Shown: positions 24,619 through 32,000, counted from the first letter of the stretch. The stretch: DNA of 32,000 nucleotides from Erysipelothrix larvae (GCF_001545095.1 NZ_CP013213.1:1830001-1862000), one strand, 5' to 3'. Made by a program: numbers and translations. Notes: generated by a model from the letters alone, not told the origin.

Positions 24619-26031
24619 TTATTTTGAACCAATTTTCGCAAACACAACAATTACAGTTTTAAAGAGAATTTTGAAATCCAAAATTAATGTGAAGTTGTCA
24701 ATGTACTCTGTATCCAGTCGGACAACTTCTTCAAAATCTGTAATATTGCTCCTTCCACTTACTTGCCACATCCCTGTAATCCCAGGTTTCATACTGAGTC
24801 TTCGTTTGTGATGTGAACTGTAATGCTTAAATTCATCGACAGTTGGTGGTCGTGTCCCAACCAAACTCATTTCTCCCTTAACAACATTAAAGAACTGTGG
24901 AAGTTCATCAATACTTGTTGCGCGAATAAACTTACCAACCCTTGTGACCCGTGGATCATTGGTCATTTTAAACATATGTCCTTCGACTTCATTGTCTTTC
25001 AGTAACTCTTTTTTCTGCTGTTCTGCATTGACACCCATGGATCGAAACTTATAAATATAGAAGTAACGTCCGTTTAGGCCTACGCGCTTTTGTTTAAAGA
25101 AAATAGGACCGGGTGATTCAAGTTTGATAATTGGTCCCAGTATTATGGCGACTAGTAGTGTGATTGTTGAGCCCACAAGCCCACCAACAATATCAATGCC
25201 TCGTTTAATGAATAAGGACTCTTCACTTGGTACTGTTTCTGAGAAGGATAGTACAGGATAATCCCCGATATGGTTAACTTGTGTTGGATAGCCACTATAA
25301 AATGACAAGAGATCTACCCCTAAATTAACAACAACACCCATTGTCCATATTTCATTAACCATGGTTTCAATGCGTCCCCACCAACCATTGTTTAACATGA
25401 GTAAGACTGAATCAACAATCTGTGAGCGGGTATACTCAACCAATGTATCAAGATTTGCAACCACCTTGAAACCATTAATTGCTTCACCCACACAGTCTTC
25501 GTCTACGATAACCAACTCGATACGATTATCAAGTTGTCCATTTTGAATTATATTCATTTTGTCTTTTGACTGTGCTTTTTCTTTTGTTGTGACGACTAAG
25601 AGTATTTGAGATTTATTGGTCATCCCTTTTTTATATACTGTACGAAGTACCATTCTTCCACAGTATCCAACAAACACATATATAATAATCGTCAACAAAA
25701 AAACACCCCTGGATACGATCATTGAGAAACTTAACGTAAAGACCAGAAGCGCAAAAAACATTCCCATGAATGCTATGTTTTTGATGATATTATACATTTC
25801 TTGTAGATAATCTCTTTTTAGAAATAATTTGTTTTTTCCTAAAGTTATGAGTTCAGCCAAAAACAAGGATAAGATGAACAGAAGATAGGTATGAACAAAG
25901 ATATCCTTAAAAAAGGGCACATTATTTTGAAGTATAATTAAGTATAAAATTGAACCGATTAGGTAGCTCACGCTTAAAGATATAACATCTGTTATTGTTA
26001 CAGCTAATTCGAGCTTTTTATTTCTAGTCAA
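24619..26031 (-). CDS. Initiating polyprenyl-phosphate sugar-phosphate transferase (large PGT), copy 2
   Basis: It is collinear with copy 1 over its whole length, and the C-terminal catalytic domain is nearly identical. No in-frame ATG occurs before the TM region. I propose the TTG start at 26031 after GGGGGGG-A-T run, which gives 470 aa. Confidence 0.88.
   Translation of the reverse strand: MTRNKKLELAVTITDVISLSVSYLIGSILYLIILQNNVPFFKDIFVHTYLLFILSLFLAELITLGKNKLFLKRDYLQEMYNIIKNIAFMGMFFALLVFTLSFSMIVSRGVFLLTIIIYVFVGYCGRMVLRTVYKKGMTNKSQILLVVTTKEKAQSKDKMNIIQNGQLDNRIELVIVDEDCVGEAINGFKVVANLDTLVEYTRSQIVDSVLLMLNNGWWGRIETMVNEIWTMGVVVNLGVDLLSFYSGYPTQVNHIGDYPVLSFSETVPSEESLFIKRGIDIVGGLVGSTITLLVAIILGPIIKLESPGPIFFKQKRVGLNGRYFYIYKFRSMGVNAEQQKKELLKDNEVEGHMFKMTNDPRVTRVGKFIRATSIDELPQFFNVVKGEMSLVGTRPPTVDEFKHYSSHHKRRLSMKPGITGMWQVSGRSNITDFEEVVRLDTEYIDNFTLILDFKILFKTVIVVFAKIGSK
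24842..24897. repeat. 56-nt stretch identical to 10132-10187
   Basis: Same sequence and orientation as in PGT copy 1. Confidence 0.9.
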
Positions 26032-26058
26032 AAAAAATCCCCCCCAAGCAATTTTTTT
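26030..26058. repeat. Cluster of homopolymer tracts in the PGT copy 2 leader (minus strand A7 ... G7-A-T8)
   Basis: The minus strand reads ttgAAAAAAAttgcttGGGGGGGaTTTTTTTTGact. The last TTG of the T-run is the proposed start codon. Confidence 0.9.
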
Positions 26059-26089
26059 CAAATTCAATATTTAATTCATTAATAGAATC

Positions 26090-26550: not shown

Positions 26551-27330
26551 TTATAAATCAATTCTGCTACTTATCGAGTTAGATAAGTTGTAAGCTTCTT
26601 CAGCCTTATCATGTGCTTGTTGAGCCATAAATAGTGCTTGACTAGAATCAGATATCGCTTTTTCAGAATTATCAATCGCTTTCTGTATATTTTCGTTTTG
26701 TAATATTATCATTTCTTCAATTTTTTTTCGATGTTCAGCAGCTAATCTCTCTTCATTATCTTTTCTCAGTTCATCAAAATATAGATTAATCGACTCTTTT
26801 ACGGTTTCGACTCTTCCTTCTTCAAAAAGCTCCAGTATAGTTTTAAGCGCTTCAGATGTTCTTATTTTTTCGGGAAATAGAGTTTCACTTCTCCAAGCAC
26901 TTTCCGTTAATACAAAAAGTTCTTGAGAAGCATCCATCTCTAACTTAGCAGATCGAATTTTATGCATTTTTTCTGCATTGTCCTCTTCCATAAGACGTTT
27001 TCTATGACTAGCATATTTTTCATAGTACTCTTTTTCAGCTAATTGTCTTTTGTAATCATAGTGTTTGTTAGCTTCTTCCATGTTTGTTTTACGTTTTTGA
27101 GTATAACTAAATGGATTCCATTTGTTTAAAGCTTTTGGTTTATCACCAACTTGTTCTAGGATGTATTTATCTTTATTCGTTTCATCAAACATTTTCAAAT
27201 TTTTCGGAATATAATGTTCAGCATCTACTAGACTCCTTTTGGCAGAATCCATCCTCTCTAGTGCTACCTCATAGTTTTGTATGATTACAAGCATTCTTCT
27301 GATTTGATTGATAACTTTAGACGGCTCCAT
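26551..27330 (-). CDS. Hypothetical charged, probably coiled-coil protein, no family recognised
   Basis: 259 aa with a strong SD (AAAGGAGATCAATT-ATG). It is rich in E, K and R, and has no TM segment. Confidence 0.7.
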   Translation of the reverse strand: MEPSKVINQIRRMLVIIQNYEVALERMDSAKRSLVDAEHYIPKNLKMFDETNKDKYILEQVGDKPKALNKWNPFSYTQKRKTNMEEANKHYDYKRQLAEKEYYEKYASHRKRLMEEDNAEKMHKIRSAKLEMDASQELFVLTESAWRSETLFPEKIRTSEALKTILELFEEGRVETVKESINLYFDELRKDNEERLAAEHRKKIEEMIILQNENIQKAIDNSEKAISDSSQALFMAQQAHDKAEEAYNLSNSISSRIDL

Positions 27331-27415: not shown

Positions 27416-28061
27416 GTATAAATGTTAATGTAAATATATAAATATACTCATTTCCATTTCCAGGAATGCAAAAATAAATCTTCACTGAAGGGTTAATAGA
27501 CTTTACTTGGATCTTGCTCAAAACACAATATCCTAGGGTAAAGCAATCTTGGGGTCACCTCATACTTTAAAGAGGTTTGGGAATCCCTAATTTATATATG
27601 TTACAATCTCACTATTTCGAATGCTAATTCTACAAAATGTCTATTCTTTTGTTAAGAATCTATAATTGTCTTCATAAGATTCTTTTTTGAAAACCTTGAA
27701 CTTTTCATTTTTTAATAAATATAATGACGTCCAAACTGTTGGATAGTAATTCAAATATTCCACCATACACCTTTCAGTGGAGTAAAAGAGTATAATAAAC
27801 AAATACATACAGAAAATAATTGTGCAAAATCTCAATTAAAATGAGCATTGTTTATAGTTATTGCTCAAATTGAGAGAAATTGATTCTCCGTTGTACGAGC
27901 ACAAGATTACTTTCTCAGCAGTGATAAACACCTTTAGACATTTAATTTTGAAAGTAAACAAAATATTGCCTTTTCCAACTTTCTTACACAACATATATCA
28001 AATCTGGAAACAATAGTCTATAATTATCATTAAGAAAACAATTTAAAGATTGGAGATTATT

Positions 28062-30557
28062 ATGGATAGTTTCAAAAAATGTGACTTACACATGCATTCT
28101 AGTTCCTGCTACAGTAGAGGCTATGACAAAACCAGTTTTATCAATAAATTGAAGAATGAACCACTTTTAGATGTTATTTCAATCACAGATCATAATGTAG
28201 TAGATGTATCGTTGTATAAAGAACTTAAGAAAGAAATCCCAGAGTTATATTTGATAGGTGGCGTAGAACTTAATATAGCAATAGATGAAGAAATAGTTAA
28301 CAAACATAGTTTGTATGTACAGAATAATTATTTTCATGGAATAGTTTGGTTTTCATATGCAGATATAGATATATTTTGGGTTCAACTAAAAAAACTTCTA
28401 GAATCTAAAAATATTGAAGTTGATGAAGCAGATATAAAAACAACCTCAAAGAGGACTGAAGGGATTTACTTCGAACTGAGTTCCATTCAAAATATATTCA
28501 AGAATATTGACTATTACTTGGTTTTTCATGAATGTAAAAGTGATAGAAATTTATCAGATTATTTACCTAATACAAAAGATGGGGAAGCCTATGATCCAAA
28601 CATAAAATATAAACATAATTTATTTTACTATAATAATAAGTATGCTATTGAAGGTGGGAAGAAAACAAGAGTGATTAGCAATTATTTTGAAAATCAATTA
28701 AATACACTTTTGGCGAGATTTTTCTTTTCTGATGCTATAGAATTGAAAGATATCGGAACTAAATTCTCTTGGATTAATTTTGATGGCGAATTTGAATCAC
28801 TTGTTCTTCCTTTATCAGATCCCGAAAGTAGAATTTTCACTTCTTATGATAAGAGTGTTAATCCTCAGTCAAATCGAGAGAATTATTTAGAGGAAATCAA
28901 AATTACCATGAAAAATTCTAAAGACAAAACATCAAAGGAAACTATTCTGACATTTTCCCCATCACTTAACGGGATTATTGGATCAAGAGGATCGGGGAAA
29001 TCACTATTAGGTAGTGTCCTTGGCAACAAAAATGTGGATAATTACAATAACTATGTAGATCATTCTTCAACATTATATAAAGTAAAAGGAAAAAAATATC
29101 AGAATAACTCCCCTAAATCTAAGTACTTGTCTCAAAATAGTTTATTGAATATATATAACGATGGAGACGTTAAGGAAATCGATTTCATTAAAGAATTGTG
29201 CAGCCAAATGGAGGATGATATCTCTAAACAAACTGCTAGTTTTATTGCTAAATCTAAGAAAATGCTTTTAAAAGAAAAAAATCTAATAGATACTATGGAC
29301 ATTAGCAAAATATTTAATTTGGATGATATTTCCTTTCTAGAGAAAAGTGTAAATGATGAATTTATGATACCCACACTAAAAAGAGATGATTTCGAAGACA
29401 ACAAAGAACGAATACGCAAATTTTCTGAGAATAATGTAACACTTATCTCAAATCTTATGAGCACTTTGATAAATGTGAAAAAAATAGAACATCCGAAAAT
29501 TAAATACGTAGAAATGAATGAATTTGATGATATTGTTGATGATTTTAAGGCAACGTTCGCTGATATGGCAACACAGTTAATTGATTATGTCGAAGAAACC
29601 AACACAAAAATTAGTGAATTAAGTTTAGAGAACATTCATGTCAGAGAAAAACTAATTGAGGAGTTAATATCAAAAATAGAATTTGGGAATAAAAAAAGTG
29701 ATTCAGAGGCTCAGGATTTTGTTACATCAAGAAGCAATGCTATAAATCAGTTAAATAAAATTACCAGTTTTAGGACATTTATTCAAGAATCATACGACTA
29801 CATTGAAAATTTAACAGAGGAGTTGAAAAATGAGAAAAGTAGTGGTGAAATAACCGTAAACACAACTGATAAATTGATTATTTCAACTTCAATTGAAGAT
29901 AGCAATAGTTATTGTGATACTATTTCAACTCAATTAAAAATCCAAAACAGCGAGAAATATAATGAATACATGGTAAAAATTCTGCTTTCATATAATGAAA
30001 TTGATAAGCTCAGGGCACATTTTAATGGAAATAAATATAAACCAACTAGTCTTAAATCTTCTTCACAGTACTTGAATAAGTATTTTTCCAATGTCGAGCA
30101 AAGTATTAATTCGGTAAATGAATTTATTTTTAAATTGTACTTTAATGGAAAAGAGTTAAATAATTATTCTCCTGGGAAGAAATCTGAAATTTTACTAGAT
30201 ATATTCTTGGATAAAGCTATATTGAGCCAGGAATATTTATATATTATACTGGATCAACCTGAAGATAATATGGACACAAAAACAATTACTGATAAACTAA
30301 TAAATAGAATAAGACAGTTAAAATTAGATATACAGCTCTTTGTGATAAGTCACTCAGCTGCAGTCATTATCAATGGTGATTCTGATAACCTTATATTTGC
30401 ATCTGAAAATGATAATACTCTATCTTACAGTTCTGGAAGAATTATTGATGCATCAATGAAAAAGAGTATTGTAGATACATTAGATGGTGGAGAAAAAAAT
30501 CTAAAAATGCGTTTAACTAAGTATGATTTCAAACTAAAGGAGACAGTTAATGATTAG
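28062..30557 (+). CDS. PHP-domain phosphoesterase fused to a Rad50/SbcC-like ABC-type ATPase with a coiled-coil insert
   Basis: I used the ATG at 28062 (SD GGAGA 5 nt upstream); the track start at 28050 is a TTG. PHP motifs are CDLHMHS, ITDHN and GGVELN. The ATPase motifs are Walker A GSRGSGKS (28980-29003), signature-like SPGKKSE (30168-30188), Walker B YIILDQPED (from 30240) and H-loop VISHS. About 330 aa of heptad-like sequence rich in K, E and N lies between Walker A and the signature motif. Confidence 0.8.
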   Translation: MDSFKKCDLHMHSSSCYSRGYDKTSFINKLKNEPLLDVISITDHNVVDVSLYKELKKEIPELYLIGGVELNIAIDEEIVNKHSLYVQNNYFHGIVWFSYADIDIFWVQLKKLLESKNIEVDEADIKTTSKRTEGIYFELSSIQNIFKNIDYYLVFHECKSDRNLSDYLPNTKDGEAYDPNIKYKHNLFYYNNKYAIEGGKKTRVISNYFENQLNTLLARFFFSDAIELKDIGTKFSWINFDGEFESLVLPLSDPESRIFTSYDKSVNPQSNRENYLEEIKITMKNSKDKTSKETILTFSPSLNGIIGSRGSGKSLLGSVLGNKNVDNYNNYVDHSSTLYKVKGKKYQNNSPKSKYLSQNSLLNIYNDGDVKEIDFIKELCSQMEDDISKQTASFIAKSKKMLLKEKNLIDTMDISKIFNLDDISFLEKSVNDEFMIPTLKRDDFEDNKERIRKFSENNVTLISNLMSTLINVKKIEHPKIKYVEMNEFDDIVDDFKATFADMATQLIDYVEETNTKISELSLENIHVREKLIEELISKIEFGNKKSDSEAQDFVTSRSNAINQLNKITSFRTFIQESYDYIENLTEELKNEKSSGEITVNTTDKLIISTSIEDSNSYCDTISTQLKIQNSEKYNEYMVKILLSYNEIDKLRAHFNGNKYKPTSLKSSSQYLNKYFSNVEQSINSVNEFIFKLYFNGKELNNYSPGKKSEILLDIFLDKAILSQEYLYIILDQPEDNMDTKTITDKLINRIRQLKLDIQLFVISHSAAVIINGDSDNLIFASENDNTLSYSSGRIIDASMKKSIVDTLDGGEKNLKMRLTKYDFKLKETVND

Positions 30558-30843
30558 AATAAATGAAGATGAAAAAGTAATTATTAGTTATGATAGTAAA
30601 GATTATTGCTTGAAAGATAAGGAACAATATAAACAATTCGTTATTAAGCTAACTGATCCAATTACAGATTTTCACAAAGATAACCTAGAAATAGACGAAA
30701 GTGTCCAAGACCCTAGATTAAAAAGTATTTGTGAAAAGTACAAGCAATTTTTTTCAGCTTATTTGGATGATAAAAATAATATTATTCAGAAAGCGAAATC
30801 CGAATTTTCCAAATTTAAGGAAGAGAATGAGCAAACAAAATAG
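30550..30843 (+). CDS. Small 97-aa charged protein, translationally coupled to the PHP-ATPase
   Basis: Its ATG overlaps the upstream TAG by 8 nt (aATGATTAG). The SD AAGGAGA lies 7 nt upstream, inside the upstream gene. It has no TM segment and I recognise no family. Confidence 0.65.
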   Translation: MIRINEDEKVIISYDSKDYCLKDKEQYKQFVIKLTDPITDFHKDNLEIDESVQDPRLKSICEKYKQFFSAYLDDKNNIIQKAKSEFSKFKEENEQTK

Positions 30844-31566: not shown

Positions 31567-32000
31567 TTATCGATAAAGCGTTAGGTAGTCTTTGCGTACA
31601 CATACGTGCAAGGAGTTTAATCTTCCAGCAAATTCTCCGTCTTTGTTCCACGAGTATTCTCGTTTGGATTCAAAGCGAATATCTTTTCCTTTTGTTTGAA
31701 TAAACAGTTCGTTGTCATATTGCTTCATGACAAGCGATAACAATAGATTTCTGAAGTCCTTGTGTTTCTTGGGTTTTCGAATTAACATCAACTCAAATTC
31801 ACCATCATTAAAGGATACTTCAGGAAGTTGAATCACGGTTCCTAATGAGTTTGAATTTGAAATACCACCAAATACAAACTGACCTTCATACACTTCATCA
31901 TCACAGGTTACTTTCATATCATAGGTTCTAATCTTAAGAAAATAGAATGTGAATATCCCATACAACCAATATGCAATGTGTCCAAAGATATTCTTGAGTT
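31567..32000 (-). CDS. Diacylglycerol/lipid kinase family protein (YegS/BmrU-like), C-terminal part (5' end beyond the window)
   Basis: The frame is open to the right edge: ...LKNIFGHIAYWLYGIFTFYFLKIRTYDMKVTCDDEVYEGQFVFGGISNSNSLG...FNDGEFELMLIR. This is the typical C-terminal half of DagK-family kinases. The track's M at 31965 is an internal TTG. Confidence 0.7.
   Translation of the reverse strand, partial: LKNIFGHIAYWLYGIFTFYFLKIRTYDMKVTCDDEVYEGQFVFGGISNSNSLGTVIQLPEVSFNDGEFELMLIRKPKKHKDFRNLLLSLVMKQYDNELFIQTKGKDIRFESKREYSWNKDGEFAGRLNSLHVCVRKDYLTLYR

Follow-up and report, generated by a model that had tools for sequence, protein, structure and literature searches.

Ppl is said to be the single-gene anti-phage protein of Escherichia coli reported by Gao et al. 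2020. The present analysis concerns a relative of it in a 32,000-nucleotide (nt) stretch of the Erysipelothrix larvae genome (GCF_001545095.1, NZ_CP013213.1:1830001-1862000), hereafter the window, whose positions are counted from its first nucleotide. The gene in question, at 28062-30557, encodes a PHP phosphoesterase and an ATPase in one chain, and had been put forward, in an original prediction made from this DNA alone, as a stand-alone defence or conflict module recalling Ppl. Ppl has been described as a single-gene defence system and validated as such (PMC11482910). E. coli Ppl is reported (PMC12904381) to be an exonuclease that degrades single-stranded DNA (ssDNA) in the 3'-5' direction, is inhibited by nucleoside triphosphates (NTPs), and acts at 3'-OH ends when NTP pools fall.

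Ppl, like the window protein, is a single polypeptide with a PHP phosphoesterase at its N terminus and an ABC-type ATPase after it, and, like the window protein and its relatives (the window clade), it is found in defence-island-type contexts. The logic of a nucleotide-gated nuclease is likely common to the two, judging from PMC12904381. The window protein differs from Ppl in that the similarity lies mainly in its last ~120 amino acids (aa) and that the third-metal ligands of the PHP site are lost in its clade; furthermore, in the clade a small partner gene is always coupled to the large one, whereas the Ppl system consists of one gene (PMC11482910). TrlF is the best-scoring curated family for the window protein and aligns with it end to end, but TrlF-type proteins are ~50-110 aa longer and the small partner, present throughout the window clade, is absent from the TrlF-like loci (0 of 79). 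Among the matches listed, TrlF occurs mostly in Proteobacteria, Actinobacteria and on enterobacterial conjugative plasmids, and its genes also adjoin restriction-modification, SLFN/AlbA and KAP NTPase genes.

More distant comparisons are with SMC-like and Rad50-like systems. SbcCD/Mre11-Rad50 also joins a metal-dependent nuclease to a coiled-coil ABC ATPase (fold match to Rad50 at 1e-6), but the nuclease of the window protein is of the PHP rather than the calcineurin-like type and is fused rather than a separate subunit, its coiled coil is short (~215 aa in total) and lacks a zinc hook, and its gene is accessory and mobile instead of core. Neither the large protein nor the partner nor the neighbouring gene has a Metallophos (calcineurin-like) match. 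The earlier suggestion that a PHP fold replaces the Mre11 nuclease is a fair analogy for how the protein would work, but is not evidence of descent from SbcCD. Lamassu (LmuB/DdmC) and Wadjet JetC are SMC-like defence ATPases that detect foreign DNA through their coiled-coil heads and then license a nuclease; JetC ranks among the best fold matches of the window protein (9e-7), and Lamassu also has a small accessory subunit beside its ATPase, which we treat as an analogy only. The family matches, however, include no PADLOC Lmu or Jet model, the effector of the window protein is fused to the ATPase, and the partner does not resemble LmuC, DdmB or kleisins.

We propose that 2.8 kb of the window probably constitute a horizontally mobile nuclease system of two genes, directed against phages or plasmids and belonging to the Ppl/TrlF superfamily. 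The architecture, the conservation of both centres, the obligate pairing, the cassette-like mobility and the defence-rich or mobile neighbourhoods presented below are direct observations.

The locus and its two genes

The features of the cassette, with the evidence on which each was placed, are as follows.

28051-28054, plus strand: ribosome-binding site GGAG of the large gene, read from the sequence
28062-30557, plus strand: large gene, fusion of a PHP phosphoesterase and a coiled-coil ABC (SMC/Rad50-like) ATPase, 831 aa, AOC36_08520; open reading frame (ORF), family profiles, AlphaFold 2 (AF2)
28062-28847, plus strand: PHP phosphoesterase domain, aa 1-262; family profile, Foldseek, residue counts, alignment with TrlF
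28887-29159, plus strand: N-lobe of the ABC head, aa 276-366; Pfam SMC_N, alignment with PDB 1xew, invariant residues
29181-29828, plus strand: coiled-coil insertion, aa 374-589; AF2 secondary structure, Foldseek
29829-30530, plus strand: C-lobe of the ABC head, aa 590-823; invariant residues, motifs shared with TrlF
30538-30543, plus strand: ribosome-binding site AAGGAG of the small gene, within the 3' end of the large gene, read from the sequence
30550-30843, plus strand: small partner gene, 97-aa acidic protein, AOC36_08525; ORF, profile search across loci, AF2

The reading frame of the large gene is open on the plus strand from a TTG at 28050 to 30557. The true start is the ATG at 28062, because the GGAG lies 5' of it at a spacing of 7 nt and all homologues begin with MDxFxKCD at the equivalent position; the TTG falls within the ribosome-binding site. 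The 831-aa product is 100% identical to P0001, the E. larvae protein AOC36_08520 annotated as "hypothetical protein", and an exact-sequence look-up of it returned no record. The ratio of nonsynonymous to synonymous divergence (dN/dS) against the closest relatives is ~0.10, with dS saturated. The predicted ORF is a genuine, conserved coding gene; its end at 30557 is correct for the large gene, but leaves out the coupled partner gene at 30550-30843. The cassette is indeed the only plus-strand operon of the window, as all other plus-strand ORFs of at least 120 aa are nested in longer minus-strand ORFs. The sign of the GC skew switches at 28-31 kb of the window. A promoter and terminator scan, uninformative in such AT-rich DNA, counted 35 promoter-like sites where 27.6 +/- 5.3 were expected and detected no terminator, and Rfam and tRNA scans of the window gave no match.

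The large and small genes form an obligate pair

The ATG of the small gene lies 8 nt ahead of the stop codon of the large gene and has its own AAGGAG 6 nt 5' of it; the small gene is evidently translationally coupled to the large one, as judged from this arrangement. In each of seven independent homologue contexts a small gene of 87-116 aa occupies the same position, and eight of the partner proteins align with a common motif, Y..F...LT(D/N)P...YxxFL..Y..R. A hidden Markov model (HMM) of the partner was run on all fetched loci, of which 26 clade loci had downstream DNA and 79 were TrlF-like. A partner homologue lies directly downstream of the large gene in all 26 clade loci, mostly overlapping its stop codon by 1-8 nt, versus none of the 79 TrlF-like loci. 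As a control, any ORF of 50-200 aa starting near the stop codon was found in only 16 of these 79, none of them homologous, and the gene tables of the TrlF loci L014 and L015 contain no such small gene. The two closest relatives (L110 and L111, 68-69% identity) have the partner with an identical 8-nt overlap. The large and small genes are therefore an obligate pair, and the "stand-alone" part of the original prediction does not survive, because a conserved, coupled small gene is present in every family locus with downstream DNA.

When the partner profile was searched against 1.84 billion representative proteins, 85 clusters were recovered. They are stand-alone proteins of ~60-130 aa with no fusions, the exception being one weak match to a long repetitive protein. 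Identity between pairs of partner proteins correlates with that between the corresponding large proteins (r = 0.95), and the partner evolves faster (mean identity 28%, versus 39% for the large protein). The AF2 model of the partner (predicted local distance difference test, pLDDT, 91.5) has a three-stranded sheet and a helix at aa 1-35 and a 40-residue helix at aa 55-95. No Pfam, PADLOC or NCBIfam family was found for it, and a fold search of the PDB and BFVD gave no significant match, the best E-values being 1.4 and 0.55.

Such a partner could also be the antitoxin of a toxin-antitoxin or addiction module that stabilises a mobile element. The PHP-ATPase would then be a toxic nuclease and the partner a labile inhibitor, possibly a DNA mimic, with phage protection a by-product as in abortive infection. 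The acidity of the partner (isoelectric point, pI, mostly 4.1-5.5; net charge -2 to -16 in nearly all members), its faster evolution and its being coupled but never alone or fused would all suit an antitoxin, as would the location of the cassettes on prophages, on integrative elements and beside transposases and the abundance of distant TrlF relatives on conjugative plasmids (660 of 883 records). We nevertheless consider this explanation unlikely. The would-be inhibitor is encoded downstream of the would-be toxin, an arrangement less usual in type II systems, and shares neither fold nor sequence similarity with known antitoxins or DNA mimics; Ppl and TrlF, the single-gene relatives, do without an antitoxin; and an 831-aa coiled-coil ATPase with conserved nucleotide motifs seems too elaborate for a toxin, fitting better a sensor-effector, as in the defence system proposed here.

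Domain architecture of the large protein

The large protein is a PHP metal-dependent phosphoesterase fused to an SMC/Rad50-type ABC ATPase in one chain, as originally predicted, and all nine motifs quoted in that prediction lie where it placed them. These motifs, together with one from the C-lobe, are listed below.

aa 7-13: PHP motif CDLHMHS
aa 41-45: PHP motif ITDHN
aa 66-71: PHP motif GGVELN
aa 222-227: terminal PHP motif FSDAIE
aa 307-314, 28980-29003: Walker A, GSRGSGKS
aa 355-360, 29124-29141: Q-loop, YLSQNS, with Q358
aa 703-709, 30168-30188: signature, SPGKKSE
aa 727-738, 30240-30275: Walker B and D-loop, YIILDQPEDNMD, including ILDQPEDNMD
aa 762-766, 30345-30359: H-loop, ISHSA (SHSA)
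30480-30500, plus strand: LDGGE, in the C-lobe of the ABC head

Conservation was assessed in an alignment of 101 full-length homologues with 30-69% identity to the window protein. In the PHP domain, D43, H44, E69, H156 and D224 are found in all 101 sequences, and H10 and H12 (100 of 101 each) and H92 (98 of 101) are nearly invariant. In the ATPase, G307, R309, G310, G312, K313, Q358, S703, G705, D731, Q732, P733, D735 and H764 are likewise present in all 101; in its C-lobe D808, G809 and G810 are invariant and E811 is found in 100. The motif matches are not due to chance, because the catalytic residues are kept in 98-101 of the 101 homologues.

Profile and fold comparisons agree with this assignment. 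With the window protein alone, the Pfam matches are sub-threshold (SMC_N, 4e-5, aa 280-316; PHP, PF02811, 2.4e-3, 18.6 bits against a threshold of 26.4), and many homologues carry a precomputed PF02811 match. The SMC head 1xew from the PDB was aligned at aa 280-319, and the family profile of the N-terminal domain matches RNase AM (9etk) in the PDB at 6e-5. AF2, run with the 101-sequence alignment, returned a model with pLDDT 86.3 and predicted template modelling score (pTM) 0.64, in which an alpha/beta domain (aa 1-262) is followed by an ABC N-lobe (276-366), long helices (374-589) and a C-lobe (590-823). Foldseek searches of the PDB matched this model to an SMC head with coiled coil (5xei, E = 1e-8), condensin (E = 7e-8), Wadjet JetC (8as8, E = 9e-7), Rad50 (9q9i, E = 1e-6) and RecN (4ad8, E = 2e-5), and its N-terminal domain to the PHP enzyme RNase AM of Vibrio cholerae (9etk, 283 columns, E = 4.6e-5). 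Structure prediction thus yields the PHP fold, the SMC-like head and the helical insertion, and both the PHP and the ABC ATPase assignments have matching profiles and folds. A PHROGs search gave no match for the large protein, the small partner or a neighbouring 259-aa ORF.

The PHP active site

When aligned with RNase AM and TrlF proteins, the PHP ligands H10, H12, H44, E69, H92, H156 and D224 are kept family-wide. Two ligands of the canonical site are lost in the window protein, where one had been flagged beforehand. The position of the motif-I Asp, after HxH, is R19 in 97 of 101 sequences. The position of the terminal D-x-H His, residue 226, is His in none of the 101; it is K in 53, L in 22, I in 5, M in 5, N in 4 and V in 3. 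The caveat attached to FSDAIE, that its terminal His is missing, therefore holds for the whole family, while "SDAH" is retained in some TrlF proteins. The full nine-ligand set of a trinuclear PHP site is hence not present, as both third-metal ligands are replaced (R19 and a non-His 226). From these substitutions the site is probably binuclear rather than trinuclear, with an Arg or Lys possibly standing in for the third metal. Given the strict conservation of the remaining ligands, the domain is probably still catalytic.

The altered site bears on the identity of the substrate. The target may be RNA or a small phosphorylated nucleotide, in which case the PHP domain would be an ATPase-regulated exoribonuclease or nucleotide phosphatase, akin to RNase AM and the pAp phosphatases, that depletes transcripts or a signalling nucleotide in conflict. 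V. cholerae RNase AM (9etk) is the best match of the PHP domain in both sequence and fold, but the match is modest (E ~1e-5) and covers generic PHP motifs only. The TrlF protein P0115 matches RNase RNM at 1e-16 and a 3',5'-nucleoside bisphosphate phosphatase at 1e-15, the loss of the third-metal ligands suggests altered chemistry, and a phage counter-defence against Ppl resembles the RNA-binding Ro60 (PMC11482910). On the other hand, E. coli Ppl is reported to be an exonuclease on ssDNA (PMC12904381), and the ATPase part matches the heads of DNA-clamping SMC, Rad50, JetC and RecN proteins. We see only a slim chance that RNA or a nucleotide is the target, and a nuclease acting on foreign DNA remains our preferred reading.

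The ATPase head and coiled coil

All elements of an SMC/Rad50-type ABC ATPase are present in the large protein, i.e., Walker A, Q-loop, signature, Walker B, D-loop and H-loop, together with an inserted coiled coil; the invariant set consists of K313, Q358, S703/G705, D731, D735/D738 and H764. The Q-loop and the signature are 345 aa apart, of which ~215 aa (374-589) are long helix or coiled coil, with AF2 helices at 374-414, 447-473, 483-518, 523-546 and 548-589. The first description, of a head split by about 330 aa of heptad-like sequence, was right about the split but overstated the helical part, as aa 590-700 belong to the globular C-terminal lobe of the head and not to the coiled coil. Across aa 374-589, neither the alignment nor the AF2 model has a conserved Cys or a globular hinge domain, and only E484, R528 and N543 are conserved in this stretch. 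A zinc-hook (CxxC) motif is absent, because the insertion has no conserved Cys.

The Walker B Asp is followed by Gln in all 101 sequences (D731-Q732-P733-E734-D735) and likewise in all ten TrlF-like proteins aligned (P0111-P0120). A catalytic Glu directly after the Walker B Asp is thus missing, and the nearest Glu, E734, is two residues on from Q732. In SMC proteins, the "EQ" substitution slows ATP hydrolysis. This suggests that DQPED is a natural equivalent of the "EQ" state, with slow hydrolysis or nucleotide sensing throughout the superfamily. D731-Q732 fits a nucleotide-sensing switch better than a fast motor, in agreement with the NTP inhibition reported for E. coli Ppl (PMC12904381).

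Relationship to Ppl and TrlF

Homology to Ppl, which the first reading of the locus had suspected but left unverified, is real, but the window protein is not Ppl proper. It scores 103.1 bits against a cut-off of 1000 with NCBIfam Ppl (NF042955; E = 1.1e-29), the best stretch being aa 697-818. With PADLOC Ppl (PDLC02208) it scores 83 bits in two stretches (E = 3.2e-24), the better of which covers only residues 774-889 of the 894 in the model, and this is the top defence model for 25 of the 25 family members tested. NCBIfam TrlF (NF045780) gives 6e-59 and 200.6 bits against a cut-off of 350, aligning aa 4-821 with model positions 5-943, and the Spaf_1101 family of NCBIfam gives 5e-23. The distant proteins P0112, P0113 and P0115-P0120 exceed the TrlF cut-off with 427-656 bits. 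Scores of the clade HMM are bimodal, at 365-1123 bits in 27 loci versus at most 177 bits in 79 TrlF-like loci. Because of this bimodality and the sub-cut-off scores with TrlF and Ppl, the window clade is placed as a separate clade, by profile scores a sister group within a superfamily that includes TrlF, Ppl and Spaf_1101 and, by the curated criteria, a member of none of them.

The unity of the superfamily is supported by shared motifs. In local alignments with eight to ten TrlF-like proteins, most of them above the TrlF cut-off, the window clade and TrlF share the PHP series HxH...DH...E...H...H...SD, G(S/G)RG(S/T)GKS, DQPEDxLD, (T/S)H(N/S)A and (L/M)(D/E)GG...R..KY. A literature search returned no publication on the function of TrlF, a name otherwise given to the unrelated TrlF of tropolone biosynthesis, and no account of PHP-ABC, PHP-SMC or PHP-ATPase proteins; Spaf_1101 appeared only in the genome paper of Streptococcus parasanguinis FW213.

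Other PADLOC models also match within the family, namely mad3 of MADS (18 of 25 members, best 1e-14), the PDC-M49A candidate (14 of 25) and AriA of PARIS (13 of 25). These cross-matches probably stem from the ABC ATPase part, and the window protein itself has no match to mad3, PDC-M49A or AriA at E <= 1.

Genomic context, mobility and distribution

At the DNA level, the window resembles its closest relatives (72%) from exactly 28062 up to 30752 or 30809, both of these within the small gene; the flanks are not conserved even with relatives of 69% identity. The conserved, mobile unit consists of just the two genes, because the DNA similarity runs from the ATG of the large gene to inside the small gene. 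The islet is not flanked by convincing direct or inverted repeats, the longest exact direct matches being one of 16 nt and three of 14 nt, all AT-rich.

Neighbourhoods differ from genome to genome and are dominated by defence and mobile-element genes, as in the following loci.

L001: integrase, cI-like repressor, Eco57I-type methylase, T5orf172/ResIII
L003: HinfI restriction-modification, Mrr, TnpV, serine recombinase, Bro-N
L006: HATPase_c_3, SNF2
L008: AAA_15-RloB
L009: type I restriction-modification, integrase, NikA-like
L011: integrase, Fic, Mu-type transposase/IstB
L013: PIN, AbiH, C5 methylase
L110 (closest relative): fragments of ISL3 and IS240-type transposases

Further neighbours in family loci include Gabija GajA/GajB, PD-Lambda-3_B, Alw26I-type restriction-modification, type IV secretion (T4SS)/TraG and prophage tail genes, and the transposases nearby are of the IS21, ISL3 and Mu types. 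Directly 5' of the large gene, a helix-turn-helix (HTH, XRE-type) gene was seen in several loci (L009/L010, 6991-7998; L001, 7577-7789; L015, 6852-7034), and in L009 this 335-aa HTH_3 protein ends 2 nt ahead of the start of the large gene. This HTH gene may encode a transcriptional regulator specific to certain lineages; in the window, no such gene was recognised upstream of the large gene.

The complete two-gene cassette was also found on two predicted prophage contigs, L096 (IMGVR_UViG_2788500460_000001) and L097 (IMGVR_UViG_3300011977_000308). Their large-protein scores are the same or nearly the same as those of Olsenella sp. An270 (L021) and Collinsella stercoris (L018), so the cassette probably rides on prophages in gut Coriobacteriia. 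Phage genomes otherwise gave weak, C-terminal-only similarity to the large protein. Among the matches listed, the hosts include Erysipelothrix, Clostridium, metagenome-assembled genomes (MAGs) of Bacilli and Mollicutes, Malacoplasma, an archaeal MAG, Curtanaerobium, and the Coriobacteriia Collinsella, Olsenella, Olegusella and Eggerthella. In a scan of 185,579 species-representative genomes, ~10 of the 79 loci listed are close relatives, full-length or fragmentary; E. larvae itself is not among these matches. No other named Erysipelothrix occurs among the homologues of the large protein.

The plasmid matches are all of the TrlF type. TrlF-family genes were counted on 883 plasmid records, mostly of Escherichia and Klebsiella, of which 660 are predicted to be conjugative. 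On one plasmid (L095, NZ_CP022443.1, 9731-12412) the TrlF gene lies between insertion sequence (IS) elements and adjoins a GNAT/DUF1778 toxin-antitoxin pair.

The distribution also bears on whether the gene serves host DNA repair, as a substitute for SbcCD/Mre11-Rad50 at hairpins or broken ends in the chromosome. A nuclease joined to a coiled-coil ABC ATPase follows the logic of SbcCD, and Rad50 and RecN are among the fold matches. In PolX and Pol III, PHP domains take part in DNA proofreading and repair. A housekeeping role is highly improbable, however, given the extremely patchy and rare occurrence (~10 close relatives among the 79 loci listed), the lack of any other named Erysipelothrix among the homologues, the changing, defence-rich neighbourhoods and unconserved flanks, and the lack of a zinc-hook or hinge motif. 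The relatives are thus located in variable defence and mobile contexts, and not as core genes in a fixed housekeeping neighbourhood.

In the window, the cassette lies downstream of a polysaccharide (capsule or O-antigen-like) locus on the minus strand at 1486-26067, in which ten genes were scanned. It includes a Bac_transf initiating transferase (24619-26067), DUF1972/GT1, two GT2 glycosyltransferases, an O-antigen-ligase-like membrane protein, Polysacc_synt_2, Acyl_transf_3 and an RmlA-type nucleotidyl transferase. On the other side is a gene for a YegS/diacylglycerol-kinase-like lipid kinase at 31567-32000 (minus strand), which is open to the window end; the listed 132-aa ORF is its C-terminal part and not a truncated gene. 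The flanks had been described as a polysaccharide locus and a housekeeping-type kinase; the former is well founded, but for the kinase the identification is weak, as YegS_C scores 26 bits and its cut-off is 27. A 259-aa orphan ORF (26551-27330, minus strand), predicted to be rich in coiled coil and with no Pfam, PADLOC, NCBIfam or PHROGs family above noise, lies between the polysaccharide genes and the cassette. It was considered as a component of the system and rejected, having no homologue in the 109 other loci examined.

Proposed mechanism and points against it

For the cassette we infer a defence phenotype, a substrate, an ATP-dependent switch and a physical complex of the two proteins, drawing on SMC/Rad50 biology and on the reported behaviour of E. 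coli Ppl (PMC12904381). Two ATPase heads would engage upon nucleotide binding, as in SMC and Rad50 proteins, and the coiled coils and heads would clamp or sense foreign DNA, probably at free ends. The tethered PHP domain would then degrade the clamped nucleic acid as a metal-dependent nuclease, the switch being the nucleotide occupancy of the ATPase. The small acidic partner, made in step by translational coupling, would most likely be a stoichiometric regulatory subunit, which might use its long C-terminal helix to bind the coiled coil or the heads of the large protein, and which would either restrain the nuclease until infection or adapt it to its target.

A more specific proposal, which we advance tentatively and with some doubt, is that the clade is an undescribed two-component branch of Ppl/TrlF. 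In it the acidic subunit would gate the SMC-like nuclease via the coiled coil or heads, as a DNA-mimicking plug or a kleisin-like bridge freed on infection, and the PHP site would have been rebuilt from three metals to two, with R19 and often Lys 226 replacing the third metal and altering substrate or regulation compared with Ppl.

Several points weigh against a nuclease-based defence system. The window protein is sub-threshold for Pfam PHP, Pfam SMC_N, NCBIfam TrlF and NCBIfam Ppl. The defence role appears to follow from guilt by association and from a distant homology to Ppl, with only 103 bits, most of them from the last 120 aa of the protein. The PHP site lacks two of its nine canonical metal ligands, and its chemistry may therefore depart from that of Ppl; the nearest solved PHP relative is the exoribonuclease RNase AM, so an RNA substrate could be possible; and, with Gln in place of the catalytic Glu, ATP hydrolysis may be slow or absent. 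Furthermore, no integrase, restriction-modification or other recognised defence gene was found within the window, and the immediate neighbours here are orphans, the polysaccharide locus and the kinase.

Implications

The cassette looks like a distant relative of anti-phage Ppl, apparently a two-gene form of a known kind of bacterial immune system. Ppl is among the less understood single-gene defences, and TrlF is an annotation name used by NCBI for which we found no published function. That the chassis of PHP plus SMC-like ATPase is also found in Firmicutes, Mollicutes and Coriobacteriia, gut Collinsella and Olsenella among them, in the form of an obligate two-gene cassette provides a natural experiment on how self DNA is spared, with fused or internal control in Ppl versus a separate small subunit here. 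The lost third-metal ligands and the natural "E-to-Q" Walker B would be informative for the enzymology of PHP nucleases and of the ABC switch. The curated models of NCBIfam and Pfam leave the genes of this clade as "hypothetical" or "PHP domain-containing", and the large-protein alignment together with the partner profile could serve for their annotation. Most deserving of follow-up are the partner family and the remodelled active sites.

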